Source: Neocallimastix sp. 'constans'
Taxonomy: Eukaryota
Assembly: GCA_050613775.1 (NCBI GenBank)
Contig: JBODTK010000014.1
Span: 992,001 to 1,056,000 of the forward strand
DNA length: 64,000 bases
Direction of reading: 5' to 3'
Each line of letters begins with the position of its first letter. Within the stretch, counting starts at the first letter, position 1. The notes below the pieces were generated by a model. It did no database searches, was not told the DNA's origin, and worked only from the letters and a program-made list of their open reading frames with translations. Shown here in pieces: positions 1 through 56,806 of this stretch. Made by a program: the position numbers and the translations under genes.

Positions 1-169
1 CTTTCTTTTTAATACTGGGAACAAATAATTTTAATTTTAAATTTAAATAAAGAATATTTTAAAATTTAATTTTTTTTTTCTTGTTTCCAAATTTATTTTT
101 ATAGTTATGTGTTAATATTTATTTTTTTTTGTTTTGAATATCTTAGTGTTTCAACCCCAGCCCGTATCA
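1..169 (+). mobile_element. LTR family A, 3' part (cut by window edge)
   Basis: Ends CAACCCCAGCCCGTATCA like the five other A copies; strand set by the PBS after the 9524-10479 copy. Confidence 0.85.
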
Positions 170-224
170 ATTTTGATACGGGGTGTCACTAAATACCTTG
201 TATTTCCTATTAAATACTCTTAAT

Positions 225-1617
225 TGTTAAGATAATAACTGAATTTCAATTCAATTTCAATTTCAATAATTCAGTTATTTGAATTTCAATATTAAAAAAT
301 ATTAATATAATAATTATTATTAAATTAACTTTATTAAAATATTTAGGAATTAGTCTAGGCCAACTAATTACTAAATATTATTAACATATTGAAATTAATA
401 TATATTAAATAATGTAAACACGTGATTGTCATTAAATTAATTTCTACATATTATATTATAATTATAAAATATAATATTTAGCTAATATTATATTCTTATA
501 TTTTATTTATATTAAATATTTATATTATTATCTTACTTTATATTATCAATATCAAACTTATATTAATATTATTACATATTCATATTAATAATTAATATTT
601 TAATAATTAATTATTTTATATATATACATGTTTAAATTCTTTTGATTAATCCTTTGTAGGATTATTGTAATTTAAATTATAGTAATAATTATATAAAATA
701 ATAATGTAATAAAATATTATTAATATTAAATAAAACTTATATTTTAAATAAAAAACTTATTTATTACTAATAATAACATGTTTTAAATAAGAATAAAATT
801 AAATTATTAATTAATTACTATAATTTTGCATCTTGACCTAATCGTTAGGAACAAATTATCCCAAAACTTTGACATTAATTGTTAAAAAGTGGACAGATTG
901 AATTTAACGACGGAATCAGGTTGATATATCTATATAATATAACTATATAGATATAAATAAATTACTAAAATAAAAGAGTTAATAAAGTTAAATTTGTTAA
1001 TTTAACACTTAATTAAAACTAATAATTGGTTTGATATGATAAAAAATTTTTATTTATTAATAAAAATATATAGTTATATTATAATAAGTTAACTATAACC
1101 TTACAAAGAACAAAAAGATAAATTTGAATTTTCTTTTTATACTTTGTAGGTTTGAGAATATTGATAATAATAATATAAAGTTGATAATAATAATATTTAG
1201 TATAAGAATATGTTTAATATAAATAAATTATATTTTTTAATCTAATATATTAGTTAATATATATAATATAATATTAAATATAAATATTTAATATAGTAAT
1301 TAATAATTAATAATTAATTAAATCAATATAACATAAATTAATACATAAACATTAATTTATGAATCAAGGATGACATGACCAAATGATTCATGTTGAATAA
1401 ATATTTTATTTACTAATAATATTTAAGTTTAATATGATATCATTAGAATCAGTAGGCCTAAGCTGGTCCTAAGATGATCAAATAACTTATAATATTATAA
1501 AATAAATAAAATTTAAAGAATAATTAATGAATTATAAATTTTTATTAATTATTTTGTTTTTAATAATTTAATTGAAATTAATTGAAATTGAAATTTAATT
1601 CAGTTGTAATTTCAACA
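225..1617. mobile_element. Family B-related TG...CA element with long imperfect inverted arms
   Basis: TGTTAAGA...TTTCAACA; 5-bp TSD TTAAT (220-224, 1618-1622); the empty site is visible in the A copy near 9570; ~920-1617 resembles B. Confidence 0.8.
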
Positions 1618-1635
1618 TTAATAATAATAAAATAA

Positions 1636-2085
1636 AAACTATTATTAAATATTCTTATTAAAATCTTTTATAATAAAAATTATTATTAAATATTCTTATA
1701 GAATTCTTTTATTAATATTAAATATAATAAAAATTATTATTAAATATTATTATTAAAATCTTTTATTAATATCAAATATAATAAAAATTATTATTAAATA
1801 TTCTAATAAAAATCTTTTATTAATATTAAATATAATAAAAATTATTATTAAATATTCTAATAAAAATCTTTTATTAATATTAAATATAATAAAAATTATA
1901 ATTAAATATTCTTATTAAATTTTCTTTTATTAATATCAAATCTAATAAAAATTATTATTAAATATTCTTATAAATTCTTTTATTAATATTAAATATAATA
2001 AAAATTATTATTAAATATTCTAATAAAAATCTTTTATTAATATTAAATATAATAAAAATTATTATTAAATATTCTTATTAAAAAT
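1636..2085. repeat. ~54-bp tandem repeat inside LTR A (about 8 units)
   Basis: Unit ATTATTATTAAATATTCTAATAAAAATCTTTTATTAATATTAAATATAATAAAA. Confidence 0.85.
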
Positions 2086-2747
2086 TATATAATATTTAAA
2101 TCATTACTAATTCTTATTTTTTATATTATGAATAATAAAAACCTATTTTAATAAATATTTGATATAAAATACAGAATTATAAGTTTCTGTATAATATTTT
2201 CTAAACCTTTGAAATAAACTAAAAAAATAAATCAAAAATCAAAAATAAATTAAATCTTTATTAAAAATAAAAATGAACTAAAATACAGAAGAATTCCAAT
2301 AATAAAAATGATCTAAAATACAGAAAATATCAATTCTGTATAATTCTCTCTCTGAAAAACAATATCAAGAAGAAGCTACCGTCCGGAATGCCTTTCGTGA
2401 TACAAGCTCTAAATTAATTTTTTATATTTTAATTTAATAAATGTTATTTTTTTTTAAAAAATAATTTAAAATAATAGTTAAAAATTAAAATAAAATAGTT
2501 ATAATAGTTTTTTTTATAAAGAATATATTAATAATAAATAAAATGTATTAAAATAAAAGTATAAAAAGAAGAATAAATTTCTTTCTTTTTAATACTTGGA
2601 ACAAATAATTTTAATTTTAAATTTAAATAAAGAATATTTTAAAATTTAATTTTTTTCTTGTTTCCAAATTTATTTTTATAGTTATGTGTTAATATTTATT
2701 TTTTTGTTTTGAATATCTTAGTGTTTCAACCCCAGCCCGTATCAATT

Positions 2748-4256
2748 TGTAATACAGAATGAATGAATAATACTAATTGTGCTAGAATAATATAAATTAT
2801 GTTAAGATTTTGATATAATTTATAGTTTAAATTTAAATAAAATAATATGTTCTATTAAAAGATATTCACTAAGTCGATATGTCTATATAGTAATATACTA
2901 TATAGATATATAATAATAATAATAAATATTTAAATGTTTAGTTTAATAAAAATTTATTTATAATAAACTTTGATAATTAGAATTATCAAATTAATTTGAT
3001 TTTAAATTTATTTATTTTATTTAATAATAAAATATCTATAATATATTACTATTAAGGTAATTTTACAATAACATTACAAAGAACATAAAAGATAGATTTT
3101 TACATCTTTCTTTTATACTTTGTAAGTTACATAATAATAATATTTAATTATAAGATTGTAATAATATAGTAATATAAATAATAATAAAATATAAGGATAA
3201 ATTTAATTATATAATTAATTTGAATAATTGAATTTAATATAGATATGTTGTAAATATATATAAAAACATAATATAAATAAAATACACGTGACTTAAAATA
3301 TATCATTGAAATTAATTATTAATATAAACCTTATTTATTAATATTCTCAGGATTATTAGGCCTAAGATAACCCTTTAAATATTAAACAAGAATTTATATT
3401 AATTATTAATTATTTAAATATATATTATTTATAATTAAATAAATAATATTTTTAATTATTGAAATGTAAATAACTGAAATTGAGATTTTAATTCAGTTAT
3501 AATTTCAACAAATTATTCTAACCTTATAGATTATTCTATTCTATATAATTGGAACTTTCCAATATTCTTCAAGTATTACTAAATAGAAATCTTAAGTTAA
3601 TAAATCACCAATCAACTTATAATTCCTTTTTGTATTATCGATCCGATTCCATTATAATGTATTAAAAATCTTTAGCCAAGAATATTGTCCTTGCCCACTT
3701 AAATATATTAATATTATATTTCTTTTGTAATATGTTATATTGAAAATAATCAAATCTATTTAATTAGTTATTAAAATTTTCGTTATCAATTTAAATTTAT
3801 TTTTAATTACTAAATTTAACTAAACCATAATTAAAATATTCTGTATAATCTCTTTATTTTTATTTTATATATATTAATATTAAACTATTATTAAATAATT
3901 AGTAATTCAATAATATATAACTACTATTTATAACAATAATATTATTAACTAAAATAATAATTCAATTTCAATTTAAATGTTTTATTTATTAAAATAGTTA
4001 GTAATTAGTTTATTAAAAAAATAGTTAGGCTTTACAAATTTTAATTTGATAAAAAAATATAAATACATGTAATTTTTAGTGAAATAAAATATAATCAATA
4101 ACTTTCTTTTTATTAAATAAATAATTACATTATTATTATTTTTCTTTTATAAATTTAAATAAATAAATATTGATTTTAAAACAAAATTATTTTTATTGTA
4201 ATTTTATTATTTGTGTTAATTATTATTATATTCTTAAAACTATATGAACCATACCA
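2748..4256 (+). mobile_element. Solo LTR family C, interrupted by B
   Basis: TGTAATACAGAATGAA...GAACCATACCA; 3511-4256 recurs almost identically at ~10600-11345. Confidence 0.8.
2800..3510. mobile_element. Family B solo-LTR-like element
   Basis: TGTTAAGA...TTTCAACA; 5-bp TSD AATTA; reverse-complement copy at 18241-32291. Confidence 0.85.
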
Positions 4257-4260
4257 TTTG

Positions 4261-5314
4261 TGATAAAGAATGAAGTAATAAATTGATTCTTATTAAAAAC
4301 CTTTTAATATAGTCAATGTGATTTTTTAAAATATTAATAAATTTATGTATTCTTTACATTAATAATTTTACTATATTATTTGATCTGAAAATTTAAGTTT
4401 ATACATAAAATTTAATTTAAATTTATGTTCATTCCTTATAAAGGTAAATTAAATTTATGAGAGTTTATCAATAACATAGTACTAATTACTTTTAGTATTA
4501 TTCTTCTAAATAAGGAATAATTCCTGTATATAAACAACTTAAATAACTTTATCAATAATTCTGTCTTTCGAATTAAGAAATAATTGAAATGAAAGAAATA
4601 AATAAAATAAAATTTTCTGTATTTAAAATTGTAAAAGGTTTTTCATATATTAATAAATGTATTTTATTTTCTATTATATCATTCAAATTAATATATAAGA
4701 TTACATATTAAATTAGTATCAAAATTAAGTTAAAGTATTCAATTTTATTGTAATACTGCTTCTCTTTTTTTGTTTAATTCTTATCTATAATGCATCTTTT
4801 ATATTATAGATTTATTTTAGTTAATTTGAATATTAGGAAATAATAAAATTTCTATTTATTACAATAAGGAAATAATCAATAAGATTTAAAATCTATTGTT
4901 TTTCCATCTCTTCAACTACTTCCAGAGGCTTTGCTACTTTTATATCTTCAAAAAGATATAAATTGACTACCTTGGAACCCCTTTTTAGGGGAGAAAAAAT
5001 AAATAAATAAAAATTAAAATAAAAATAAAATAAATAAATAAAAATAAAATAAATAAATAAAAATAATAATAAAAATAAAATAAAAATTAAAATAAAAATA
5101 AAATAAATAAATAAAAATAAAGTAAATAAATAAAAATAAAATAAATAAATAAAAATAAAATAAATAAACAAAAATAAAATAAATAAATAAAAATAATAAT
5201 AAAAATAAAATAAAAATTAAAATAAAAATATAATAAATAAATAAAAATTATTGTGTGTAGTTATTTAATGTTTTAATATTATAATTTTTTTTTTGAATTC
5301 CTCGAGCAATAACA
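4261..5314 (+). mobile_element. Solo LTR family E
   Basis: TGATAAAGAATGAA...CTCGAGCAATAACA; TTTG on both sides. Confidence 0.75.
4996..5248. repeat. A-rich (AAAAT/AAAT)n low-complexity repeat
   Basis: Direct reading. Confidence 0.8.
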
Positions 5315-5318
5315 TTTG

Positions 5319-5865
5319 TGATAAAGAATGAAATAATAATGATATTTTTAACATAAATTCTTAATAATTTATTATATAAAAATATATTATTATATTCTTT
5401 ACTATTAATAATTTTCTTATATTCTATATTAATAATTTTCTTATATTTTATATTAATAATTTTTTATATTAATTATATTTTATATTTTTAAATATTAATT
5501 TATGTAATTAATTAATTTATATGATTGGATTTTAATAATGTAATTAAATAATATAAAAATATGGATAATCCATATTTTTATTATGGGGGCCTTTCTGAGA
5601 AAAGAATTAGAAATAGTAGAAAAATGAATTAGGAATAGTAATAATTGAAAGGTTTCCCATATTGTTATTAAAATAAATATTAATACTAATAAAGTATTTT
5701 TAACAATAAAATAATTATATGATTTATAAATGATAAATATTTTTAATAATAGTTCTTTAAATAAAATTTATGTGTAATAATAAATTCTTTTAGTGTAATT
5801 TAGTAGTTAGTTAATTTATCTATTTATTTAATGTTCACACTCCTTTTACAATATGAACCTCAACA
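5319..5865 (+). mobile_element. Solo LTR family P
   Basis: TGATAAAGAATGAA...GAACCTCAACA; TTTG on both sides. Confidence 0.75.
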
Positions 5866-5871
5866 TTTGTG

Positions 5872-6838
5872 TGTAAGAAATATTAATTATTTATTAATAA
5901 TATTTCTTAGTCTTTATAATTATTGATAATAATTATAAATTTATTTAAATTATAACTAATTCATACATTGAGAAATTATTATTAAATTTATTATAATTAT
6001 AATTATTCATACACTTATATAATATTAGAAATTTTATTTAAATAATTATTATATATACATTTATTAATATTATTAATTTTATTTAGTTATTCATTTAATT
6101 ATTAAATTAATGTAAACATTACTTTTGTTTATTTTTTAAATTGTACATTTAAAAGAATAATTAATAAGTTTCTGTATTTTTTATAATTCTGTATTCTAGT
6201 TTAAAGATAGTTTTATGTTAATAAGTTTAGATTAGATTGTAAAAATGATATTTAGAAAATAGAATAATTTAGATCATTCCGGTTATTATTTATTTTTCCT
6301 TTTATCTGATGATCTAAATTAAAATTTAGAAAATCGATATACTAAGGTTTTACCCAAATATAAAATAATATATTTGGTTTTACTTAATATATACGATGAT
6401 TGATATAAATAGAATATCGATCAAAAACTTATCTAGTTTTTTCTTCTAATCTTTTTCTAGATAAGATAATTTTAAGATTAGAAAGCCTTTTTTTATTTAA
6501 CCTTATTTCCATAAAAAAATATAAAAAGGGCTCTTGATTTCCCTTTAAGAAATCAAGAGTTATTATTATAAAAATATAGTTATAATAGTAACGATTTTAT
6601 ATTTTAAACTTTAATAAATTAATAAAATATTTTATTCAAAAAACATATTTTAAAAATTAAATTTATACAAATCTTTCTTCCTTCTTATTTTTCGTGTTAT
6701 TATTATAATTAATTTTATAATAAACTCCAATAATATTTAGGTAAAACTTCTTTTTTTTATTTTCTCAACTTAATGAATTAATCGTTAAGTTGAAGTTAAT
6801 AATTCTATTTTGAGTTAGTTCTTAATAGAATTATTACA
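5872..6838 (+). mobile_element. Solo LTR family F
   Basis: TGTAAGAA...TTATTACA; close reverse-complement copy at 35939-36914; conserved core ~6330-6570; TSD imperfect. Confidence 0.85.
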
Positions 6839-6839
6839 T

Positions 6840-7746
6840 TGTTAAAGAAGAGGCAAATATTGTTAATTTGGTCTCAAATCTAACAAATAACTTAATCATA
6901 AATTAAACTATTTGCCTTCCTTATTGTATGGAACTTTCCTATATTCTACTATAAATTAAAATTGAATTATTTCTTAATAAATAATATATTATATTAAATA
7001 AATTTTTATTAATATATTTCTTATTTAAAATTATTATATTATTATTGAAATATTAACAAATTATCAATATATTTTTTTTATTAATATTTTTATTTTATCA
7101 ATTTATTATTGTCAAGTTATATTAAAAATCTAGATAGTTTTTCTTTAACCAATAGTTATTCATTGTGCTAATAATAAAAATTAATTTCTAAATAATATTA
7201 CTAATACATAATAATACAAAAAAAATAAAATTATATATTATTAATATATGTTTATTATAATCCATAATGTTATATTTTTAAGAATTAATTATAACAATTA
7301 TATTGAATAATTTAAAATTAATTTTATTTTACACATAAATGAAGGATTTAGTAAGTTATAATTACTAAACCACATTAGTAAATTCTGCAAAATTGATAAA
7401 ATTATGTTTAAAATATATTAATAATACATTAATAATTAATTAGGATAAATTTTTATATATAATAGAAATACTTAAATTAAAATAAATTTATTAGATACAA
7501 TTTAAAAATTAGAATTATTATTAAAAGAAATTAAAAATAAGAAATGGCTTTCCCATTTCTAATCAATTGTAAAAATATAAAAAGAGATAGTTTAGAAAAA
7601 AAAATCATGTAATAAATTATAAAAAATAAATTTTAATAAAGATTTTTAATAAAACAAAATTTTCTTTTATTTTTATTTTTATTATTGTTTTAATTTTATT
7701 TATAATTTTTGAATAATTTTTATAAAAAAAACCCTGAACCAAACCA
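6840..7746 (+). mobile_element. Solo LTR family N
   Basis: TGTTAAAGAAG...GAACCAAACCA; second copy 56807-57722. Confidence 0.85.
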
Positions 7747-7750
7747 TATT

Positions 7751-9518
7751 TGTGTAATAATTTCTATAAATTATAGAAATTATTATTTACAATTAATATT
7801 AACTAAATTATTAATATTAAATAAAATTAAAATAAAAATAAGAATTTAATACTTATCTTTAAAAGAGAGTTTATTATAAGAAAATATAATAGACTTTAAA
7901 TATGAAAAAAGAAATAGAATATGTTTTTTATAAGAGTTTTATTAATCTATTTGATTATTAAATATTTTATTATTATTTTTTTTTGATAAATTTTAAAATA
8001 ATTATTTTATATTGATTGAAATTTTAATGTCTTTTATTGTTATTATATTTTTCTTAAAATAATAACTCTTGATTTTCTAAAGAAGAAAATCAACAGCTAT
8101 TTATATTTTTACAAAAATAAATGTATTTTTCTAATCTTAACAATGATTCTTTCCAGAAAAAGATTAGAAGAAAAAACTGGAAAGATTTTTGATCAATAAT
8201 CTATACTTATTGATCATTGTGTTATTAAATAAAACCAATTATAATTAATCGGAAAAACTTTAATAACCGATTTTAATAACTAAAAGAATTAAAAAGAAAA
8301 AAGGATAAAAAAGAGAAGGGTAAAATAATACAGAAGTTATATTAAATACATTTTTTCATATAACAATTAATACATTAATTGGTATAATTATTTTTAAATG
8401 AAATAAAATTTTTTAAAGAATAATAATTATGAAATAATTATTAATTAATAAGAAATAGAAATAAATTATAAAAATTTATATCAATTTCTTACAATTTGAT
8501 AAATAACAAAATTATTAAATTAAAATAAATAATAAAGAACAAATTCTTGTCTAACTTAACCCATTCTAAAAAAAAATTAAATCCATATTAAAGAAAATTT
8601 AATTAAATAAAAAATAATTAAAATAAAATAATAATAAATTAATTAATCATTAATAATTTTAATTAAAAACTAGAATAAATTAATAAATAATATTTTTCTA
8701 AAACTACAAATAAACAAAATAATAAACAAATTTAATAAATTATAAATAACAAATAAACAAACTTATAAACATCTCAAAATTAAAATTAAATAGTTAAATA
8801 ATCTTTGAGTTACTTTTATTTAAAATAATGATTATTTTATTTATTTTATAACTCAACTTTTATAAACAAATTGTAATTAAAATAACATTTTAAAACTCAT
8901 TTTTATTAATATTTTAATTGTAAATATTGTTTAATTTAATAATAAATTATTCTTTATTTCTCTTTTATTAATTTTATTATTTTTAATGTAAATAGTTTAA
9001 AATCAAAGAAAAATATAAAAACATGTAAATATTTCTTATAAATATTCTTTATTATTAATTATTTAATAAATTATTATAGATATTTTATTAGTTTTAATAA
9101 TCAAAAAGTATGATTATTAATTATTTAATAAATTATTATATATATTTTATTAGTTTTTAATAATCAATTTTTATGATTATTAATTATTTTGATAAATTAT
9201 TATATATTTTATTAGTTATTAATAATCAATTTTATTATTAAAATTTAAAATAAATTAGTATAAATATTAAATATTTCATTTTTATTATTTTATTAGTTTT
9301 AACAATTATTTTATTAATTTAAACAAAATTAATTATTAAATAAATAAAGATTAATATTAAAATAAAAATAAAATTTTTTAATAAAATATTTTTGTGTTTA
9401 ATAATAAAACATTTTTATTTTTTTTAAATTTCTTAAATCTATTTTATTCAGTATTTATCCTCTTATTCACTTCTACAAAATTTAATTTTTGTAGATTAAG
9501 AATATCAGGTATAAATCA
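7751..9518 (+). mobile_element. Solo LTR family H, with F inserted after its first TG
   Basis: TG|ATAAATAA...GGTATAAATCA; TSD TATT (7747-7750, 9519-9522); relatives at 17258 and 34994. Confidence 0.8.
7753..8493 (-). mobile_element. Solo LTR family F
   Basis: TGTAA...TTACA; perfect 5-bp TSD ATTTG; conserved core ~8060-8275. Confidence 0.85.
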
Positions 9519-9523
9519 TATTT

Positions 9524-10479
9524 TGAAACGGGGCGTCATTAAATACCTTGTATTTCTTATTAAATACTCTTAATAATAATAAATAAAAACTATTATTAAA
9601 TCTTATTAAGTCTTTTATTAATATCAAATCTAACTAAAATTATTATTAAATATTCTTATAAATTTCTTTTATTAATATTAAATATAATAAAAATTATTAT
9701 TAAATATTCTTATAAATTTCTTTTATTAATATTAAATATAATAAAAATTATTATTAAATATTCTTATAAATTTCTTTTATTAATATTAAATATAATAAAA
9801 ATTATTACTAAATATTCTTATTAAAAATTATATAATATTTAAATCATTACTAATTCTTATTTTTATATTAAGAATAATAAAAACCTATTTCAATAAATAT
9901 TTGATATAAAATACAGAATTATAAGTTTCTGTATAATATTTTCTAAACCTTTGAAATAAACTAAAAATAAAACTAAAAATCAAAAATAAATTAAATCTTT
10001 ATTAAAATAAGAATGAACTAAAATACAGAAGAATTTCAATAATAAAAAAGATCTAAAATACAGAAAATATCAACTCTGTATAATTCTCTCTCTGAAAACA
10101 ATATCAAGAAGAAGCTACCGCCCGGAATGCCCTTCGTGATACAATCTCTAAATTAATTTTTATATTTTAATTTAATAAATGTTATTTTTTATTAAAATAA
10201 TTTAAAATAATAGTTAAAAATTAAAATAAAATAGTTATAATAGTTTTTTTTATAAAGAATATATTAATAATAAATAAAATGTATTAAAATAAAAGTATAA
10301 AAAGAAGAATAAATTTCTTTCTTTTTAATACTTGGAACAAATAATTTTAATTTTAAATTTAAATAAAGAATATTTTAAAATTTAATTTTTTTCTTGTTTC
10401 CAAATTTATTTTTATAGTTATGTGTTAATATTTATTTTTTGTTTTGAATATCTTAGTGTTTCAACCCCAGCCCGTATCA
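9524..10479 (+). mobile_element. LTR family A acting as 5' LTR of a deleted element
   Basis: Full uninterrupted A copy followed by a PBS. Confidence 0.9.
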
Positions 10480-10487
10480 TAAAAATT

Positions 10488-10504
10488 TGGTGGAGAATCC
10501 GGGC
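10488..10504 (+). other. Primer-binding site, tRNA-Ala-like
   Basis: TGGTGGAGAATCCGGGC resembles the complement of the eukaryotic tRNA-Ala 3' end (from memory of the tRNA sequence). Confidence 0.75.
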
Positions 10505-10538
10505 GCCTTAAACACATTATAAGATGAAAAGAAACCTT

Positions 10539-11345
10539 AGAATTTATATTAATTATTAATTAAATGTATATTGAAATGTGAATAACTGAAATAATTTCAA
10601 TAATTATTCTAACCTTATAGATTATTCTATTCTATATAATTGGAACTTTCCAATATTCTTCAAATATTACTAAATAGAAATCTTAAGTTAATAAATCACC
10701 AATTAACTTATAATTCCTTTTTGAATTATCGATCCGATTCCATTATAATGTATTAAAAATCTTTAGCCAAGAATATTGTTCTTGCCCACTTAATATATTA
10801 ATATTATATTTCTTTTGTAATATGTTATATTGAAAATAATCAAATCTATTTAATTAGTTATTAAAATTTTCGTTATCAATTTAAATTTATTTTTAATTAC
10901 TAAATTTAACTAAACCACAATTAAAATATTCTGTATAATCTCTTTATTTTTATTTTATATATATTAATATTAAACTATTATTAAATAATTAATAATTCAA
11001 TAATATATAACTACTATTTATAACAATAATATTATTAACAAAAATAATAATTCAATTTCAATTTAAATGTTTCATTTATAAAAATAATTAGTAATTAGTT
11101 TATTAAAAAAATAGTTAGGCTTTACAAATTTTAAATTGATAAAAAAATATAAATACATATAATTTTTAGTGAAATAAAATATAATCAATAACTAACTTTT
11201 ATTATATAAATATTAATTATATTATTATTTTTCTTTTATAAATTTAAATAAATAAATATTGATTTTAAAACAAAATTATTTTTATTGTAATTTTATTATT
11301 TGTGTTAATTATTATTATATTCCTAAAACTATATGAACCATACCA
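10539..11345 (+). mobile_element. B right-end remnant followed by 3' part of LTR family C
   Basis: ~10600-11345 matches 3511-4256; ~10539-10600 resembles the B end at 3389-3510. Confidence 0.75.
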
Positions 11346-11349
11346 TATT

Positions 11350-12263
11350 TATTAAAGAATGAACAAATATGTTAATTTTATTATTTTTCATAAAAATAAC
11401 TTAACCACTAAAATTAAATTATTTATTTCCTTACTTGGAGAACTTTCTTATGTTCTATTACTGCCAAATTATTACTAATATTAAAATTATTATTATAAAT
11501 ATAAATTCTTTATCAATATCAATACTTTATTATTAAAATTAATACTATATTATTAATATCAATATTATTATCAATATCTAGTTTCATTAATATGATTTAT
11601 TCTATTAATATTTTATTATTAAAGAAAATTTTATTTTACAAATATTACTAATACAGATTATTTATTATTAATAAAAATTAATATAATTAATAATGATTTA
11701 AAAATATTTTACTTAAATTCATGATCCTTGTCATTAAAATTAGTAATACTTCCTTCCAAAATACACCCTATTTATAATAAGATTAATAATAGATAATAAT
11801 CTAAAATACTTTTATTTAAAAATAGTATAAAATTAAATAATACTCTATTACTAATAGTTCTGTAAAAGTAATAAAATTATTTTTAAAATATATTATCACT
11901 ATAATTAATAATAAATAGTTTAGAATTTAATAATATATAATAATTATTTATTATAATAAAATAGATTATGAATTTATAATTTAAATACAATTCAAATATG
12001 TAACTCTAAAATATTCTAAAGAAATGGCTTGACCATTTCTAACGATAAAAAAAAATATAAATAGATGAGAAAATTGTATTTGAGAAAAATAATCTTGAAA
12101 AATATAATCTTATTGAAGAAATTAAATTATTTTTAGTTTTTAATTGAATAATTTTTATTAAATAAATAAATAAAATATTTTAAAAAGATATATTTTAATT
12201 TTTAATTTTTTTTTTTTAGTGTTTATTTCTATATTTATTATTATTCTGTCCCGAACCTCAACA
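11350..12263 (+). mobile_element. Solo LTR family M
   Basis: TATTAAAGAATGAA (TG mutated)...CCGAACCTCAACA; shares the GAAATGGCTT..CCATTTC hairpin with N. Confidence 0.7.
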
Positions 12264-12269
12264 TGTGCG

Positions 12270-13922
12270 TGTAATAATCATACTAAGTACTATTACTTAA
12301 TATGATTATTAACTTCAACTTAACGACTAATTCATTAAGTTGAGATAATATATTTAAATGATTTTTTACCTAAGTCGAGCTTATTATAAACTTAATTATA
12401 ATAATAATACAGAACAGAAATAAAAGAATGTTTAGATAATATATTAAGTTGTGACTTAGATTAAAGGGTAAACTTGGTTGGAAGCCTTTAATATAATAAC
12501 CTTATGGATTTTATTTTATTTTATAAATTTATTTATTCAAATTATAAAAATATTATTTTATTATTAAACTTTTAATTAATTATATTTAATTTAATATATT
12601 TTATTATAAAGTTATCAGATTATTAGTAAATAATAATCTTACAAAGATTTAAAAAAAGAATATTTTTTAGTTCTTTTATATTTTTGAAAAACAATATAAA
12701 ATATTTAATAATATATTTTAATAAATACTAATTTAAAGATAACAATATAAAATATAATTTTAATATATAAAGTAACAAAATAATATATAAATAATATAAG
12801 ATAATAAAAATATATAAAATAATATAATTAATAAAAAACAATTTTTATAAATAATATTCAACTATATTAATTAATAAAAAAAGGTATAATATTAATTAAT
12901 ATGTAATACAATATTAATCAATTAATATATTAGGGATTCAATAATGTATAAAAGGGATAATATTAATTAATATGTAATACAATATTAATTAGGTTATGAA
13001 CGGTACAAGGATTTAAGGAGTACAAATTATATTTTTAATTAAATTATTATTTTTATAGTATTGAATATAAATTAATTTGTATCAAATCCTTGACATTCAA
13101 CTTAACGACTAATTCATTAAGTTGAGATAATATATTTAAATGATTTTTTACCTAAGTCGAACTTATTATAAACTTAATTATAATAATAACACAGAACAGA
13201 AATAAAAGAATGTTTAGATAATATTTAATTTGTAAAATGTTTTTTAATAGAAATTATTTTATTAATTATTTAAAGATTAAAATATAAATTATTATTATTA
13301 TAACTAGATTTTTTATAATAATAACCCTTGATTTCTTAAAAAGAACTCAAGAGCCTTATTTATATTTTTTTGTTAAAATAAGGTTAAATAAAAAAGGTTT
13401 TTCTAATCTTAATAAATTTCTTATCTAGGAAAAGATTAGACAGAAAAACCTAGATAAGATTTTTGATCGATATTCTATCCATATCGATCATCGTATCAAT
13501 TAGGTAAAACCAATTACTTTTAAGAAGAAATTGGAAAAAACCCTAATTAACCGATTCCTAATCTAATCTAATGATCGAAAATAAAAGAATAAAATAATTA
13601 AAAAATATTTCGATCTTAAAATAATAAATTTACAAAAAAGGAAAATAAAACATTGATAATATTAAATAAAATACAGAATACATTATTAAATACATAATAG
13701 AATACATAATATGTTTGTTTATAATTTAATTAAATAAATAAACTAAAACTAATAAATTTAATAATTAAATATATAATAAATTATAATTATTTATAAATGA
13801 ATAATTAATAATTAATTTAATAAAATTTTGTTATAATATAAATAATTTTATAATTATTATCAATAATTATAAAGACTAAGAAATAATAATTATTTATTAG
13901 TAAATAATTATTATTTCTTACA
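12270..13922 (-). mobile_element. Solo LTR family F containing insert Q and a ~134-bp duplication
   Basis: TGTAA...TTACA; TSD GTGCG/GTGTG; core ~13320-13560. Confidence 0.8.
12450..13095. mobile_element. Putative solo LTR Q
   Basis: TGTGAC...TTGACA between two copies of an F segment; single copy in window. Confidence 0.55.
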
Positions 13923-13925
13923 GTG

Positions 13926-14631
13926 TGATCCGGAACTAGCTTATTTACTTCAAATAAGCATACATAAAAATGATAAAAAGAAAAAAATATAAAATGTTTA
14001 TAATAATGAAATTATTTAAAATTAAAATAGTTATAATAATAAAAAAAATTTATTTATAATAAAATTATTTATAATAAAAATAATTATCTATAAATTGTTT
14101 TTAATAAAATAAATACAGAAATATTTAATTCTGTATAAAATTAAATCGATTGACAATACTAACTATTATTTTTATTGTTTTCTTTATAATAGATTATTAT
14201 TTTCTGTATTCTTTTTGCAATAATAAACTTTATGAGAATATAATATTAATAATTTACAAGAATATTAAATTATATATTAATTGATAAATTAAAACATTAT
14301 TAGAATAGATAGTTAAAATTTTAAATATAAATAAATCATTAATAATTATACAACTATATTTTAAAATAGATACTTTAGAATAGGTTAATTTTAAAATATA
14401 TTAATATTAAAATAACATTCATAATAGAATAATATAAATAAATGTATTTGTTAATGTTCAATTCAAGATTCATGTAAAAAACTATAAAAGGAAGAAATTT
14501 TCTTTCCTTTGAAAAAGGACGACAATCAAATAAAATAAAAATTTATAAAATATTTTTAAACTAATAAAAATTTATTTATAATATTTAATATTGTGTTTTT
14601 AAAATATTGTGTGTGATCCGTGCCCATATCA
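13926..14631. mobile_element. Solo LTR family J
   Basis: TGATCCGG...CCCATATCA; TGTG at 12264-12267 and 14632-14635 once F is removed. Confidence 0.7.
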
Positions 14632-14635
14632 TGTG

Positions 14636-15757
14636 TGGTAAAGAATGAATTAATAACCTTTATTTTATTATTAATAATTCTTTACTAAATTGTACTTTCC
14701 TATATTCTTGATAACCTAAACTTAATAATAAAATTTAATTTATTTTGATATAAATTAATTTTAACTTGTAAATAAAATTAAATCAATCTTAATTAATTTG
14801 TTGTATATCATTAAATATATGTATATATTAAAATACAATTGTAAATATTAAAATTATACTTTTAAGATACTAAATTATTAAAATTATTAATTAAATATTA
14901 TTATAAAATTTATTATAAACTATTAATATTATAAAATTATTAATATTATTAATTAAATATTATTATAAAATTTATTATAAACTATTAATATTATAAAATT
15001 ATTAAAATTATTAAATATTATTATAAAAATTTATTTATTACAACTATTAAATATTATTATAAAATTTATAAAATTATTAATTAAATTTATTATTAAAAGT
15101 TATTATTAAAATTTATTAATTATTATAAAAATTTATTATTTAAATATTATAAAATTTATTATTAAAATTATTAATTAAATATTATAAAAATTTTATTTTA
15201 TTTTTGAAAATAATTACAAGTATTATTTAAAATAATTAAAGATTATTAAATTTATTATATTAATTTTTAAAACATTTTATTTAACTTAAAAATATCAAAG
15301 AAAATAGTAAAAACTACTTTCTATATATCTATTTTATAATTATTTTTAAAAACAATTAATTTAACTTAAAAATATCAAAGAAAATAGTAAAAACTACTTT
15401 CTATATATTTATTTTATAATTATTTTTAATTAAATTATATTTAAATATTATATTATTATATTTATAAAAATTAAAACAAAATGAATTATTGATATAAAAT
15501 TAATTCAACAATTCTATAAAATTACTTAAATTATAAACAAATAATTATACTTTAAATTTATAAAAAAATATAAATATTGTAACAATTTCTTAAAAATTAA
15601 ATATGTGTACTTCAAAAAAAAAAAATAAAATTTTATATTAATAAATAAGTAAATAAATTTTATTAAAAACAAAAATTTTTTTTTAAAATCAAAGCAGGGT
15701 AATCCCCGTCCCCCCTGCTTGATTTTAAAGTTAAACATACTAACCCCGAGTCTACCA
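14636..15757 (+). mobile_element. Solo LTR family K
   Basis: TGGTAAAGAATGAA...CCCCGAGTCTACCA; TSD TGTG; second copy 34016-34989. Confidence 0.9.
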
Positions 15758-15761
15758 TGTG

Positions 15762-16600
15762 TGGTAAAGAACGAACATATAATGGATTATTAATTAGAAT
15801 TTCAATTTACTTTAGAATCCATTATATTATTCTTTATTTAATATTACTTTACTAAATTTTCTATACTAAAATATTTTATAAATATAATTTTTTTTCTATA
15901 TTTTTATTAAAAGTTTCTAAAATATTATCAATAATTCTATATTTTTATTATTAATATCAATATCTATAATTTAACCTTAAATTTTATTATTTTATTAAAG
16001 TGTTTATTATCAATATTAATATTTTATTTTTATTCAAATATATTATTATATTATTATTATATTGTATCAATATTAAAATTGTATTCTTTTTAGTATTTTA
16101 TTTTATTTTTAAATTGATTATTTAATATTTTTATTCCCCACAAATAAAACCAAATCTTAATTGATTAATAATAAATATTAAATATATTATAGTTTTTAAA
16201 TTTATTTTATATAAAATATAAGAATATTATATTAACATTCTTGATTAAAATAACTTTATTTTTCTGTAAAATCTTTTTAAATTTTGTTTGTTTCTTTTCG
16301 TATATATTAAATAATTTAGTTTTAGTATATGAAAAATAATATAAAATTATATAAACAAAATTTATTAAAATAAAAATACTTATGAATTAGTTAATTTAAA
16401 TTAATATAAAATTTGAAGTAATTAGTAATAGTAAATTATTTTTTTTTAAATATGATAATAAAATGTAGAAAGGCTTTACATATTTATTTTTTTCAAAAAG
16501 TATAAATAAGTAAAGTTTTTCAATAATTAAAATGTAGACAGAAAAAAAAGAAAAAATTAAACAATTAAATAAAATTTCTAATAAAACCCGAACCATAGCG
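15762..16600 (+). mobile_element. Solo LTR family L
   Basis: TGGTAAAGAACGAA...CCCGAACCATAGCG; right end degenerate. Confidence 0.65.
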
Positions 16601-16602
16601 TG

Positions 16603-17253
16603 TGATACAGTATCACTATAAAAATAAGATTTAGGTAGGAAATTTAGGTTAGAAATATTGTATAAATTTTATTTGTTATAATAATTAAAATAATTTATAT
16701 ATTCAAATAATTATTTTTAAAAGCATGGTTAATTCTTTTATCATAATTAAAATAGATAAATTATATTATTAATGATTCTATTATTATGATAATAAATTAA
16801 TTCATCATTATTATTAATAAGTTTAATTTTATATTTTAAATATTATTTTGAGAATTATATAGTTTTAGGAATTATATTATAAATATTGATAATTATATTT
16901 TATTTAGGAAATATATTTTAAATATTAATAGTTAAATATATATAATAATGAAATTGTAGTTTTAAATAAAGTTATTAGGAAATTAATAGTTTAAGAGATA
17001 TGCTTAATAAAAATATAATATTAAATAATTATTTTAACAATTATATAAAATTAAGAGAATGTAATAATAAAAATTTATATATGTAAAGATAAAATAATAA
17101 AAATAAATAAAGAATAAAAAATTATTATAAAACATTATTATTATTAATTATTTTCTTATATTTATTAGAATATATTATCGTGTCATAATTCCTTAGAGAA
17201 ACGACCAACTAAATTAATAATTCGATATGGAATATTTTATATGTTCTGTATCA
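16603..17253. mobile_element. Solo LTR family I
   Basis: TGATACAG...CTGTATCA; left end resembles the reverse complement of the 58644-59145 right end. Confidence 0.7.
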
Positions 17254-17257
17254 TGTG

Positions 17258-18185
17258 TGATAAATAATGAAATTATAAAATTAAAATAAATAATAAATAA
17301 TAAATTTTTATTTAACTTAACCCAAAATTAATTCTTTTAGAAGTCCCGAAATCAAATTAAAAAATTAATTAAAAGAAATAAATGAAGATAAAAATTATAA
17401 TAATTTAATTAATTATTAACAATTTAATTAAAACTAAAATAAATTAATAATTAATATTCTTATAAAATTATAAATAAACAAAATAATAAACAATTTTAAT
17501 AAATTGTAAATAATAAATAAACAAATTTATAAACATTTCAAAATTAAAATTAAATAGTTGAATAATCTTTAAATTACCTTTTATTTAAAATAATTAATAT
17601 TTTATTTATTTTATAACTCAACTTTTATAAACAAATTATAATTAAAACTTGTTTATTTTAATACTTTATTTGTAAATATTTATATCAATTATTTATTTTA
17701 TTGTTTATAAATGTAAATAGTTTAAAATCATTGAAAAATATAAAAACATGTAAATATTTCTTTTAAATTATTCTTTATTATTAATAATTTCAATAACTTA
17801 TTTTATATATTTTATTAGTTTATTAATAATCAAATTATGATTATTAATAATATCAATAAATTATTTTATATATTTTATTAGTTTATTAGTTATTAATAAT
17901 CAAAATTATTATTATTAAAATTTAAATAAATTATTATAAATGATAAATATTTTATTTTATTATTTTATTAGTTTTAAGAATTATTTTTCTTTTATTAAAT
18001 TAAATAAAATTAATAATTAAATAAATAAATATTAATATTAAAATAAAATAATATTTTTAATAAAACAATTTTGTGTTCTAATAAACCATATTTATATTAA
18101 ATTTCTTATATTTCTTAGTATTTATACGTTTATTCACTTCAACAAAATCTAATTTTTGTAGATTAAGAATATCCGGTATAAATCA
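17258..18185 (+). mobile_element. Solo LTR family H
   Basis: TGATAAATAATG...CCGGTATAAATCA; TSD TGTG; near-identical to 34994-35932. Confidence 0.9.
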
Positions 18186-18925
18186 TGTGTGATACGGGGT
18201 GTCATTAAATACCTTGTATTTCCTATTAAATACTCTTAATTGTTGAAATTATATCTGAATTGAAATCTCAATTTCAGTTATTTACATTTCAATAATTAAA
18301 AATATTCTTTATTTAATTATAATTAATAAATAATATATAATTATTAATTTATATAAACTTTTATTTGGAAAGTTTATATAATTAATAATTAATATAAATT
18401 CTTGTTTAATATTTAAAGGGTTATCTTAGGCCTAATAATTCTGAGAATATTAATAAATAAGGTTTATATTAATAATTAATTTCAATACTACATTTGATCT
18501 AAAACAAATATGTGTAGTAACATATTTGTATATTTAATAATAATTATTAAATATTAAATTTATATCTTTTGATAATAATTTTTATAATATATTATTAATT
18601 ATTATATATTAAATTACATATTATTTATTATAAATCACACTTGATTTATTAAATTTTTGTTCAAGAAAATTTTCTACATAATAATATTATTTACATTTAA
18701 AATTTATATTCCTATCTATAATAATTTTACATTGATTCATATGATATATATCATTAAATGATATACGCCACAGTATACATAAATTTATTCTTTATAATTA
18801 TATTTATTTATTTACACTAAAATTTATTTTATACTTATTTTATATTTATTTATTTTTTATTAATTATTTATTAATTATTTATTAATTATAAATATTAAAC
18901 TTATTTCTGACATTCCCCCATAAGT

Positions 18926-20489
18926 TTAATATTCTTGGATTTTCGTTAATAAAGTGTCTCGTAACGTTTTCATTATGGACCCATTCAGATTCTTTGTCAA
19001 AAAGTCAGCTAAATTATTTTGTGATTTTACATACTCTAATTTTATTTCTTCCTCTTTAACTAATTCTCTAATTTTGTGATATTTTAAATCTATGTGTCTT
19101 GATTTTTGATTTATACTTTCATTTTTACTATTATAGATAGCAGCTTTATTATCTACATTTATATATATATATTTTATATTTATACCTAACTCATTAAGTA
19201 GATTTTTTAACCACATACACTTTAGAGCCCATTCATTCAAACTATAATATTCACTTTCAGCAGTAGAAACAGCCACACAATGTTGTAATTTAGAATACCA
19301 GGTTATAGGCGTATTTCCCATGATTATTAAAAATCCGCTAGTAGATCTTCTTGTTTCTTCGTCCCCTCCTAAGTCAGCGTCGACGTAAGCAGCTATATTT
19401 ATATTTTTTGATATTTTTATTCCATAATATTTAGTATAATTTAAATATTTAAATATTTTTAAAACATTAATCCAATCTTCATAAGTTGGATTTTCATTCT
19501 TTCTTGAAGCCTTACTAGTAGCGAACATAATATCCGGTCTGGTGCCCATGGCAAGATATAACAGACAACCTACAGCTTGCATATATACCTGTGGGTTAAA
19601 TTTTCTATTTTTTAATTTTTTATTTTCTATATTGATCATATTAGATGCCTTTTCATTTTCGTTTATTTTAAATTTATCTAATATTTTTTCTAGATATCTT
19701 AATTGATGTAAAATGTAACCATCTTTACATTTTATAAATTTTATCCCTACAATGAAGTCTACATTTCCAATATCGCTTAATTCAAAATACTTATTTATTT
19801 CTAATTTAACTTTATTTATTGTTTTATTATTCCCTGCTATTAATATATCGTCAACATAGATTGCAATAATACATAAAATATTTTTATACTTATCTTTCAG
19901 TATGTACAAGCAAGGTTCACTTTTTTAATCTTTCAAACTTAAGTTCTAGGAGTGTTTTATTTATTTTATCATTCCAGATGCGGCCAGCTTGCTTCAATCC
20001 ATATATAGATTTTTTTAATTTAATATACCCTCCTACATCCATACCTCTAGGAATTTCCATATACAATTCCTCATTAATTTCTGCATTTAGATAGGCAGCC
20101 TTGATGTCCAATTGATATATATTAAAATTATTATAAACAGCTATAGAAGTAATTATTCTCAGAGAATCTTGCTTAAGGGTAGGTGAGAAAGTGTCAACAT
20201 AATCCACACCATACACTTGTGAAAATCCTCTTGCTACTAACCTTGCTTTATATTTTGTTATGTTACCTTTATCGTTTCGTTTATAACTAAAAACCCACTT
20301 GCAGCTGATTAAATTTTTTTCTTTTGGTACTTCATTGACTATTTCAAAAACTTTCTTTTCTTCCATATTTTTTAATTCCTTATTTATAGCTTCTATCCAT
20401 GAGTTTTTATCTGGTCTATCGAATATTTCTTCATAGGTTAATGGTGGGTCTAATTCTATTGTCTTATTTGTTATTAAGATATTCGTCAT
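18926..20489 (-). pseudogene. Copia-1 reverse transcriptase/RNase H, frameshifted near 19915
   Basis: KARLVARGFSQ, QLDIKAAYLN, YVDD, YVDADLGGD, STAESEY motifs. Confidence 0.93.
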
Positions 20490-21858
20490 TATTTGTTTAT
20501 ACTTTTTGTTTACATTATTTTCACTCTCATTTAATTTTCTTTTTAAATTATAATTATTTATTTTTTTTCCTTTATTAAATTCAATTTCGTTAATTGAATT
20601 ATTTAATTTATTTTCAATTTCATAATTATAATTATTTAAATTTGTAATTTCATTATTTTTATTTAAATTATGTTTATTAATAATATTATCAATGCTACTT
20701 CCTGGTTTGTTTACATTTTCAATAAATTTTTTTTTTTTAAATTTTCAATTAAATTATTTTTATTTACATTGTTAATTGAATTAATTTCATTATTTGAATT
20801 ATTATATGAATTATACTCATTATTGCTAATTTCATTTTTCTTACCATTTGAAATTAAATTGTTTAAATTGTTTCCTGTATTATTTGAATTTCCTGTTTGT
20901 TTATTTAATTGTGTTAAATTTGAATTTTGATCATATAATTTACTTTTTGAATTAAATTCAAATTTAAATTTTCATTTCCTGAATAATTATTAATTTTATT
21001 ATTATTTAAATTATCATTTTTATTATTATAGTTTTTATTATTTAATTCAGAATAATTATTATTTTGGATATTATAATTTTCAAAATTGCCATTTGAATTA
21101 TTTAAATGACCACTTTGAGAATTGAAATCCTCATAATAATGTTTTGGAGAAGAAAAATTTTGTTTTAAATTATTATATATATTATTATTTAATTGTAAAT
21201 TATTATTATTTAAATTATTGGCTGATTCAGAAAAAATTTTTTGAGCTGGATACAAAATTAAATTTCTGTTATTCTGTGGATCATAAAAAATTTTATAATT
21301 ATTTGAATAAATTAAATTATTTTGATTAATTGGAGAAGTATTATTTATATTATATTTATTAATATTTATATTATTTTCATTATTGACTTCATTATTATTA
21401 GTATTAATATTATTATTATATGGAGTATTTATGACTGCACTTTCGTTATTATCATTAATATTAATATTATTATTATTATTATTATTATTTGGATTAATAT
21501 TATTATTGTTATTATAATTGTTAAAGTATTAAATAATATAAATAAATAAACTTAATAATTTAGGTTTATAATTAAATAATAGAAAATATAAATCATAAAT
21601 ATTTATGTAAAAAACTAAACCTAAAATGTAAATTAACATTATTTATGTTAATACATAGTTAAATGTAAATCATTAGATTTATCATGCGCATGTAAATAGT
21701 TTCTTTATTCTTGTTTATTCACGTGAAATAGTTATATAGTTTATATAAAAATAATTGTTTATTTTATAGACGAAAATTCGCGACTTTCGTCAATATAATA
21801 TTTTATAATAAATAAATAAATGTATAAATTATTAATAACTAAATAAATTACTTTAATA

Positions 21859-21873
21859 GATTAAGAGTCTCAT
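21859..21873 (+). other. PBS complementary to the tRNA-Lys(CUU) anticodon arm
   Basis: GATTAAGAGTCTCAT directly after the 5' LTR. Confidence 0.85.
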
Positions 21874-22045
21874 CTGTACTCTTAACATTCTCATATAATA
21901 TTGATAAAATAATATAAAATATCTTTATTAAAATAAAATATTAATTAAATAAAATATTAATAAAATTACATAATAAAAACACAAAATAATCTTCTTAAAA
22001 CCCAAATATATAATAATATTAATTATTAAATTAAAAATCAATTAA

Positions 22046-27343: not shown

Positions 27344-27689
27344 TTTGAGGGGGAGTGTTAAAGTATTAAATAATATAAATAAATAAACTTAATAATTTAG
27401 GTTTATAATTAAATAATAGAAAATATAAATCATAAATATTTATGTAAAAAACTAAACCTAAAATGTAAATTAACATTATTTATGTTAATACATAGTTAAA
27501 TGTAAATCATTAGATTTATCATGCGCATGTAAATAGTTTCTTTATTCTTGTTTATTCACGTGAAATAGTTATATAGTTTATATAAAAATAATTGTTTATT
27601 TTATAGACGAAAATTCGCGACTTTCGTCAATATAATATTTTATAATAAATAAATAAATGTATAAATTATTAATAACTAAATAAATTACT

Positions 27690-30321: not shown

Positions 30322-31082
30322 TTTATTCACACTTATTAAAAATACACTAAACACAATAAATTATTAACACTCACTTATTGAGTCAATGAGACTCTTAATC
30401 TGTTATAAATCACACTTTTTATTTATTAAATTTTTGTTCAAGAAAATTTCCTACATAGTATTATTTACATTTAAAATTTATATTCCTATCTATAATAATT
30501 TTACATTGATTCATATGATATATATCATTAAATGATATACGCCACAGTATACATAAATTTATTCTTTATAACTATATTTATTTATTTACACTAAAATTTA
30601 TTTTATACTTATTTTATATTTATTTATTTTTTATTAATTATTTATTAATTATTTATTAATTATATTAAACTTATTTCTGACATTATTTTATAATATATTA
30701 AATTATATATTTATTTTATAATTATATATTATTATATTAAAATATAATAATATTCTTATATTTAACTTTAATAGGATTTTTATTATATTATATAATATAT
30801 TATTATGTATTATTTTATATTTATTTTATATTTTATATATAATATACATTTATTATTTAAATATACATATTGTATTCTTATATATATATAATTTATATTA
30901 TATGTTTAAAATATATTTCATATTATTAAATTTTATAATTTTAAAATGTAATTTCTTAATAATAACCAATTTCTAATAAAATTAATTTAGAAAGGGGTTT
31001 TTAGTTTTTAGGAAAAGTAATAATAAATTAAATAAAGATATAACTATATTATTATAATTAAAATATAGCACATAAAAGTCCC

Positions 31083-34011: not shown

Positions 34012-34015
34012 TTGT

Positions 34016-34989: not shown

Positions 34990-34993
34990 TTGT

Positions 34994-35932: not shown

Positions 35933-35938
35933 TGCTTG

Positions 35939-43325: not shown

Positions 43326-43372
43326 TATAAATACATGTAAAATTATTCTATTAAAGAAAATGTAGTTGTTAT
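43326..43372 (+). promoter_or_regulatory. LTR TATA box and predicted transcription start / self-primer
   Basis: TATAAATA 43326-43333; GTAGTTGTTAT 43362-43372 is the exact complement of the PBS. Confidence 0.75.
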
Positions 43373-43537
43373 TAACTATTTTGCAGTTAATAACTAATAA
43401 AAAGAATTTTTATAATAAAGTGATTAATAAAAGAATTTTTTTTAAAAATAAATTTCATTTGAGTATTGTTATTGATAGTGTTGTTTTTTTTTTTTTTTTT
43501 TCGTAATTGTAATCTGCTCCATAAGGAACATTTTACA

Positions 43538-43548: not shown

Positions 43549-43585
43549 CTTGTTATAAAAAGTGGAGCACGTTACGATCACGAGA

Positions 43586-56803: not shown

Positions 56804-56806
56804 TGT

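Follow-up and report, generated by a model that had tools for sequence, protein, structure and literature searches.

How do long terminal repeats (LTRs) of about a dozen families come to lie end to end, with a few bases between them and the same few bases recurring from junction to junction? This question is raised by a stretch of 64,000 nucleotides from the fungus Neocallimastix sp. 'constans' (contig JBODTK010000014.1, positions 992,001 to 1,056,000; hereafter the window). A preliminary description made from the letters alone had read its first 18 kb as a head-to-tail train of solo LTRs from several Gypsy families, for which the ends of resident LTRs serve as landing sites. Serial insertion at a re-used target duplication is clear. 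The train is best read as a deep stack of many families at a targeted site, an unusually deep variant of known site-targeted stacking. With moderate confidence, we favor the reading that this narrow site was set by a fixed landmark on the left, most likely a gene transcribed by RNA polymerase III (Pol III).

Between positions 169 and 18190 there are 17 unit junctions, with gaps of 1 to 6 bases that sum to 69 bases: 4 bases at 8 of the 17, 5 at two, 6 at three, 3 at two, and 2 and 1 at one each. The only other DNA outside the units is a stub of about 60 bases after the primer-binding site (PBS) of copy A2 (Table 1). The recurring spacers listed in the preliminary description are all in place (TTTG at 4257, 5315 and 5866; TATT at 7747, 9519 and 11346; TGTG at 12264, 14632, 15758, 17254 and 18186; TTGT at 34012 and 34990), as are the differing flanks of the two copies of family K, TGTG at 14636 and TTGT at 34016. 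Many junctions have the proposed form CA-NNNN-TG, but those at 5866, 7747, 12264 and 35933 do not, as an element of family T sits there after the TG of the next LTR. Most units run from TG to CA and most are solo LTRs, except that LTR B starts with TA, as in metagenome locus L014, and that A2, N and P are followed by a PBS, with Gypsy coding remains behind N and P. The TA of B comes directly after the purine tract (L014:1327; window 2750), and C (11350) may share this start.

Exact flank identity was found in 13 of the 17 four-base units with both flanks intact, unit boundaries being placed by eye and homology (p ~3e-18 at a background of 0.0247, the probability that two random 4-mers drawn from the region match). 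The test omits 11 units with a lost or overwritten flank (A0, G1, A2, B2, M, N, A5, Q/R, J-like, G2 and P). The four exceptions are C, A3-A4 and J3, whose flanks are unequal, and S, with a single mismatch. The flanking 4-mers share no fixed motif (ATTT, TTTG, TATT, TGTG, TTGT, AGAA, CATT, TCCC). In simulations, thirty random insertions in 64 kb gave a mean of 0.075 neighbors within 5 bp (maximum 2 in 20,000 runs), and a 1-kb hotspot gave a mean of 4.3 (maximum 11 in 5,000 runs). Random insertion, even with such a hotspot, cannot give the train pattern. GC content is about 11 to 15% in the train and 20 to 31% in the coding stretches of the window. The train holds one chance open reading frame (ORF) of 70 residues, while the long ORFs of the window are retrotransposon genes, from Copia, a chromovirus and decayed Gypsy pol. 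With the nested elements removed, the train runs on to at least 52449 and probably as far as the full-length element at 59379, so that most of the window may be one structure; the reconstruction leaves 52967-55885 outside.

The order of neighbors varies: K is followed by L or J; J comes after G/T, M or K; and A has A, B, a PBS, T, Q or a T end on its right. This variation, together with the different exact duplications of same-family copies, largely refutes a composite repeat, a segmental duplication, or assembly by recombination without targeted integration. We regard such an origin as very unlikely, in agreement with the preliminary description, although the unequal flanks of C, A3-A4 and J3 and several deletion junctions indicate that recombination has acted.

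We also compared positions 1-480 of the window with contigs, all short, of four sequencing runs from four studies. A-A junctions with other letters at 170-173 were found in 12, 2, 4 and 3 contigs of run X1 and in 2, 1, 1 and 1 of run X5. The end of K followed by GTGT precedes A in 2 contigs of run X5, and the end of T followed by TTT precedes it in 3 contigs of run X8 and 4 of run X5 (consensus agreement 0.81 and 0.62). Alleles of A free of the inserted element X were present in 30 contigs of run X1. This run may be the source sample; among 20 runs containing train sequence, 10 are labelled feces metagenome. Because other runs show A-A, K-A and T-A junctions with other spacers as well as X-free A alleles, the junction pattern is present at other loci and in other samples, and it is therefore not a fixed composite. 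The differences in neighbors and spacers between copies and between runs also uphold the proposal of independent serial insertions by several Gypsy families that re-use one target duplication. The contigs have no denominator and are silent on what anchors a train.

That the train is an assembly artefact, made of repeats joined at short overlaps, is scarcely credible. Read support is confined to positions 1-480 and short contigs, with no long read across the train, but an assembler has no reason to produce matching 4- or 5-base flanks or nested elements with exact duplications, and an intact Copia ORF of 1765 residues lies between identical LTRs. Moreover, record 19 of run X5, which belongs to a study other than that of run X1, bridges an A-A junction with 31 or more letters on each side.

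The units with 4-bp duplications are LTRs of one Gypsy clade, five families being identified directly and the rest by motif or resemblance. An alignment of 16 integrases led to 80 metagenome loci, 19 of them 49 to 78% identical; L019-L081 and L092-L100 (32 to 41% identity, except L033 and L099) were left out, as were the LTR-sharing tandems in L008, L011 and L013, which may be assembly collapses. In these loci a purine tract separates pol from the start of one of the LTR families of the window: Q/R in L003 and L005 (84 to 97%), B in L014 (96 to 98%, with the TA start and without X), a start like that of J in L010 and L015, and, in L007, a start resembling K together with an end resembling L. 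LTR identity was thus established by sequence match for B (L014) and Q/R (L003, L005) and by a PBS in the window for A, N and P; it relies on terminal motifs for J, K and L, and on motif or resemblance for E, F, G, C, D, M and S. A miniature inverted-repeat transposable element (MITE) or a Ginger-type DNA transposon was ruled out for A, B, Q/R, N and P by the PBS or purine tract. The PBS of A2 is TGGTGGAGAATCC, which we take to correspond to tRNA-Ala.

The pol order of the clade is protease, reverse transcriptase (RT), RNase H (RH), integrase, with RT and RH before the integrase in 7 of 7 proteins. No chromodomain was found in the 7 clade integrases scanned, and the integrase ends a median of 44 residues past the GPY/F-type motif (range 25 to 54; 77 of 129 proteins). 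A midpoint-rooted RT-RH tree of 31 rows combined 30 of the 129 fetched proteins with the chromovirus of the window, Ty3 and DGLT-A being left out. All 17 clade rows form a single group in it (100/100), separate from both the chromovirus and the 13 named outgroups. RT-RH identity is 55 to 80% inside the clade and about 40% outside. By their lack of a chromodomain and their separate group, the 4-bp elements do not appear to be chromoviruses. At 63222-63803 lies a fragment of an integrase with a homologue of 65% identity, whose label, Orpsp1_1, denotes Orpinomyces/Pecoramyces; together with the feces-metagenome labels, this makes an anaerobic gut fungus the very likely host. Two clade elements, at L003:255-1300 and L007:165-1300, have long, partly GC-richer leaders from the PBS to gag. 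Gut-fungal Gypsy contigs binned in four prokaryote genome assemblies (L087-L091, L099) represent contamination.

The preliminary description overlooked two nested element types with 5-bp duplications, family T at junctions and family X about 50 bases inside LTRs. Family T has 9 copies in the window (8 aligned), with TGTAA...TTACA ends, 4 lying one way and 5 the other. Its 5-base duplication is exact in 2 of 5 testable copies, has one mismatch in 2 and two mismatches in 1. In T2, T3, T5 and T7 the duplication consists of the final three spacer bases and the TG of the next LTR. Family T has TG...CA ends, with no PBS or pol adjoining any of the 9 copies, and matches the fetched loci only in low-complexity sequence. 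Family X (TGTT...AACA) has exact 5-base duplications in 3 of 3 cases, after base 51 in A1 and A3 and after base 50 in B1. The sites in A1 and B1 lie at an equal distance from the start of the TATT string described below (n=2). T and X may be MITEs or Ginger-type DNA transposons.

A conserved fold is predicted for the core of T (36205-36440 and 7 other copies), with two hairpins and an H-type pseudoknot made by a pair of crossing 9-bp helices. In the alignment 95% of cells pair, with both-side changes in 9 of 38 pairs and none within the first crossing helix; the structure was derived from the same sequences on which it was scored. One copy has a folding z of -5.35. The core had no match in Rfam, and a scan of prokaryote genomes for the hairpin pattern gave 0 matches. 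The predicted structure could serve the element as an RNA signal or, at the DNA level, be a cruciform. In T3, an insert at 12452-13095 is bounded by a 139-bp duplication and is weakly X-like, with a short inverted repeat near 13000-13095.

What sets the insertion site? Flush CA-NNNN-TG junctions do not single out targeting of LTR ends, because a fixed host landmark beside the stack gives identical junctions. The spacers themselves are more telling. Each of those from 170 to 11346 is a window of a single string, TATTTG (TATT, ATTT, TTTG): G1 and J1 lie at TATT, A0/A1/A2 at ATTT, B1/E/F at TTTG, and T at ATTTG or TTGTG. The odds that two further random 4-mers both fall within the three registers of a founder are 0.004. 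From 33195 to 57726 the spacers are windows of TTGTT(T)G, except AGAA, which corresponds to bases 5-8 of a T end. The switches of string are located at C and A3-A4, both of which have unequal flanks. We had considered the 3- and 5-base gaps as homopolymer errors, but they resolve as off-register duplications.

Those off-register insertions of the main train have a direction. In 12 of 12 the duplication takes in, or bites, the first bases of the right neighbor, and in 0 of 12 the CA of the left one (p=4.9e-4 if symmetric). The bites are those of the F-run and T1 into G1, T2 into J1, T3 into D, L into M, A4 into T4, T4 into K2, T5 into N, A5 into Q, A6 into T7, T7 into G2, and S into T9. Because the bites always hit the right neighbor, the newcomer always lies on the left, even for T, which lands both ways. 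The right neighbor may be either T end: A4 sits on one end of T4, S on T9 and A6 on T7 at the other, as expected if position is set from the left. The six copies of LTR A also form a nested positional ladder, (A0,A1,A2) / A4 / (A5,A6), which no character contradicts (24 of 720 orders, p ~0.03). The claim that most orientable units face the same way stood: every copy orientable by primer site, locus match or U3 start motif faces +, a strong bias; the related M and S face opposite ways, so one of the two is inverted, and T units lie both ways.

This polarity bears on an explanation in which the CA-NNNN-TG junction mimics the junction of a 2-LTR circle and is attacked by sequence, 3' of CA on both strands. 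The geometry equals that of a 4-base staggered cut, and HIV-1 integrase cuts its cognate 2-LTR junction in vitro, but, in the sections of that report available to us, cleavage was strictly dependent on the cognate sequence (PMC1905944). The explanation also predicts symmetric scatter and both orientations, in contrast to the 12:0 bites and the one-way 4-bp clade; CANNNNTG is present at 100 places in the window, and CA or TG is missing next to A6, G2, P1 and P2. We therefore consider it highly improbable.

The proposal of the preliminary description, that the resident LTR end is the landmark, deserves more weight. A protein bound in U3 or U5 would tether the integrase, insertion would occur at the 5' boundary, and each insertion would create new targets. 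Flush 4-base junctions are indeed the commonest (8 of 17) and runs of one word extend across families, X lies at +51/+52 in three separate LTR copies, P2 lies 8 bases from the 3' end of P1 inside another element, K-A, T-A and A-A junctions with other spacers occur in other runs, and no host landmark is seen in the window. However, about a dozen dissimilar LTR families and both T ends would have to be read alike, the positional ladder of A copies is not predicted, the 12:0 direction of bites requires an added polar tether, and many stacks anchored at tRNA genes would give the junctions of the other runs just as well. We hold LTR-end targeting to be doubtful, and similarly so its broader form, in which the whole gut-fungal Gypsy clade and at least two unrelated element types would read the 5' boundary of any LTR and make the trains a self-renewing safe harbor. 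If LTR ends were the landmark, the targeting rule would have no counterpart in the literature searched. A single growing left end fits the polarity, the sliding spacer string and the A ladder better.

We favor a fixed left landmark because it predicts all four of the following: spacers drawn from one string, bites to the right only, the use of either T end, and the A ladder. We infer the following course of events. The landmark would be the start of a tRNA gene or of another Pol III gene to the left of the window. Integrases of the gut-fungal Ty3/Gypsy clade would be tethered there and would cut at positions that vary by no more than a base or two, giving 4-bp duplications. Each newcomer would land between the landmark and the previous element, re-using the duplication and shifting older elements to the right, and most elements would then collapse into solo LTRs by LTR-LTR recombination. 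T, with its 5-bp duplication and either orientation, would use the same spot, and X would insert about 50 bases farther away. The abrupt changes of spacer word at C and A3-A4 would stem from recombination between copies of one family. The evidence on polarity is silent on the nature of the landmark, which might also be a host DNA-binding site or a centromere or heterochromatin boundary; we consider these improbable, since the base-precise Gypsy targeting described in the accessible parts of the literature is at Pol III genes (PMC5911963, PMC5006619).

Several observations weigh against a stack grown from a Pol III gene. The left end of the train is beyond the window, so that the landmark is a prediction, and no tRNA gene would be expected in the window unless that end were visible. 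No tRNA gene, Rfam family or B-box consensus was found within the window, nor any tRNA gene in 25 related loci, where no locus was seen past the outer 5' end of an LTR. Among the rows listed, the loose ends preceding the start of A in other runs are LTR or T ends, not tRNA. At least 30 insertions over at least 60 kb at one site would be far deeper than the tandems described in the portions of the literature at hand. There is no clean gradient of age (6, 3, 6, 11 and 6 private substitutions for A1, A2, A4, A5 and A6), and B2, on the right, is nearer to L014 than B1 on the left (97.6 versus 95.9%). B2 also carries X, yet its register differs from that of B1. The A ladder could be explained by local gene conversion. 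P1 lies inside X and P2 inside the last 12 bases of P1, both far from any left landmark. Up to six identical spacers across families need a precision beyond a scatter of +/-2, a hint that flush LTR ends may be preferred. Of the 12 bites, three were reconstructed (F-run into G1, L into M, T4 into K2), and the clade integrase is without the long tail of Ty3.

Other candidate landmarks and further scans gave little. Relaxed ARAGORN settings produced 53 tRNA calls, all intron-bearing and implausible, which we treated as noise. GAACC, which matches part of a reversed B box and lies close to many U5 ends, was dropped as an internal Pol III landmark because it is absent from the ends of A and J. A DNA-pattern scan of metagenomes for LTR ends gave 0 matches, and five viral matches to the LTR-end pattern, all in unrelated DNA, were due to chance. 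The four prokaryote assemblies with fungal retrotransposon contigs gave low-complexity DNA matches and pol matches without outer LTR flanks; a start-motif scan of the same assemblies gave 34 matches versus 20 in the control, and the 30 fetched looked like chance.

Among proteins of known structure, the best PDB match of the clade is Ty3 Gag-Pol (E 4.8e-43), in a database that contains few Gypsy proteins. Ty3 has a 5-bp target duplication. It inserts both ways and has about 137 residues past GPY/F, whereas the duplication here is 4 bp, the orientation almost one-way and the tail about 44 residues. Ty3/sigma of Saccharomyces cerevisiae and Tj1 of Schizosaccharomyces japonicus resemble the present clade, as far as the available accounts describe them, in being Gypsy elements, chromodomain-less or like Ty3, that choose their sites almost to the base. 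In contrast, about a dozen families and two other element types occupy one site here, and a Pol III gene is not seen in the window. Near base-precise re-use of one site is common to this train and to Pol III-targeting elements: in the source sections available, Ty3 inserts 1 to 4 bp and Tj1 1 to 10 bp upstream of the tRNA start (PMC5911963), DGLT-A about 15 bp upstream of tRNA genes (PMC5006619), and TRE5 about 47 to 50 bp upstream, strictly oriented and forming tandems (PMC5391098, PMC5006619).

The two dictyostelid elements provide a further parallel. Judging from the same sections, they place a chromodomain-less Gypsy element about 15 bp, and a second type about 50 bp, from one landmark. 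The DGLT-A integrase, like those of the clade, lacks a chromodomain and is short after GPY/F (PMC5006619), and TRE5, which is strictly oriented and forms tandems at one tRNA gene without inter-insertion (PMC5391098), recalls X in its position. However, TRE5 is a non-LTR element, and the stacks described there are shallow. The view that no system of this kind had been described was thus too strong, as tandems at tRNA genes appear in these papers (PMC5391098, PMC5006619, in the parts at hand). In Drosophila double-insertion tandems, according to the available text of McGurk and Barbash (10.1101/158386), the duplication kept in the junction regenerates the target, as here, but one family is involved at a preferred motif, in contrast to the many families and the 4-mer without fixed motif of this train. 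Nested plant LTR retrotransposons similarly pile Gypsy elements inside other elements, whereas, in the portion of that study accessible to us, LTRs are not commonly targeted and 3' untranslated regions are preferred (PMC6911290), unlike the insertions flush with LTR boundaries here. A literature search, with most subscription journals outside its coverage, returned no description of gut-fungal trains or of LTR-end targeting.

If the favored reading is true, a large and diverse clade of gut-fungal Gypsy elements would have base-precise targeting by a minimal integrase, without a chromodomain or the long tail of Ty3, and Pol III targeting would gain a further example, from a fungal lineage that diverged early. 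Every stack would be an ordered record of family activity over time, and the clade could offer a natural safe-harbor integrase for fungi with few genetic tools.

Table 1. Map of the units of the train and of elements nested in it (TSD, target site duplication; PPT, purine tract; paired words give left/right flanks)
Feature	Position	Strand	Remarks
A0, 3' part of LTR family A, off the left end of the window	1..169	+	96% to A1
A1, LTR A, ATTT/ATTT, carrying X1	174..2744	+	junction reading
X1 element, TGTT...AACA, TSD TTAAT, after base 51 of LTR A	225..1617	.	empty-site A alleles: 30 contigs of run X1, 2 of run X16
B1, LTR B, natural TA start, TTTG/TTTG	2750..4256	+	L014: PPT then X-free LTR, 96%
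X2, TSD AATTA, after base 50	2800-3510		within B1
E, LTR-like, TTTG/TTTG	4261..5314	+	clade membership by start motif only
F, LTR-like, TTTG/TTTG	5319..5865	+	clade membership by start motif only
T1, TGTAA...TTACA, 5-bp TSD TTGTG/TTGTT	5872..6838	-	strand relative to T alignment only, not true polarity
G1, LTR, right flank TATT	6840..7746	+	92% to G2 (56807-57722)
T2, TSD ATTTG/ATTTG, final 3 spacer bases + TG of J1	7753..8493	+	
J1, LTR family J, TATT/TATT	8497..9518	+	L010, L015: PPT then same start
A2, LTR A (to 10479), then PBS at 10488, internal region deleted	9524..10505	+	same PBS in L011, L013
X remnant + B2 (3' part of LTR B), right flank TATT	10540..11345	+	
C, G-related LTR, unequal flanks TATT/TGTG	11350..12263	+	probable recombinant
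T3, TSD GTGCG/GTGTG, internal insert + 139-bp duplication	12270..13922	+	
D, LTR-like, TGTG/TGTG	13926..14631	+	
K1, LTR family K, TGTG/TGTG	14636..15757	+	L007 start similar
L, LTR, TGTG/TGTG, duplication takes in TG of M	15762..16600	+	same end motif on L007 5' LTR
M, LTR-like	16603..17253	.	inverted relative of S (58644-59145)
J2, TGTG/TGTG	17258..18185	+	95% to J3
A3-A4, one LTR A split after base 51, unequal flanks TGTG/GTTT	18190..33194	+	
Inverted X splitting A3-A4, TSD TTAAT	18241-32291		contains LTRs P1 (TSD CATT) and P2 (TSD TCCC), and two nested Copia elements
T4, K2 (TTGT/TTGT), J3, T5, then LTR N	33198..37497	+	train continuation; N with PBS at 37502
Decayed Gypsy gag-pol behind N	up to ~42020		
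A5 (3' part), LTR Q/R, T6, J-like remnant, A6	42020..52449	+	Q/R split by chromovirus 42781-49700, TSD CTTAT
A6, AGAA/AGAA (bases 5-8 of T end)	within 42020..52449		
T7 (split by Copia LTRs + other inserts), G2, 39-bp gap, T8 (GCATC/GCATC), S, T9, LTR P	52450..59788	.	
PBS of LTR P, then decayed Gypsy coding	59794 to end of window		

Other elements are nested in the window. LTR P2 (31083-31791), which lies 8 bases before the 3' end of P1 (TSD TCCC), in X and in A3-A4, is an insertion of the 4-bp clade off the train junctions and an exception to the rule of bites to the right. The intact Copia element (21519-27695, plus strand) has identical LTRs of 340 bp that end in TA, not CA. Around it lies an older minus-strand Copia, whose LTRs at about 18628-18914 and 30403-30684 are 95.5% identical. 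The chromovirus is young, with LTRs 99.7% identical, and inserted after base 201 of LTR Q. This site lies about 150 bases beyond the +50 site of X in other LTRs, a single case for which nucleosome spacing is possible. The 5' leader of the chromovirus (43541-43825) contains a 15-bp tandem repeat.

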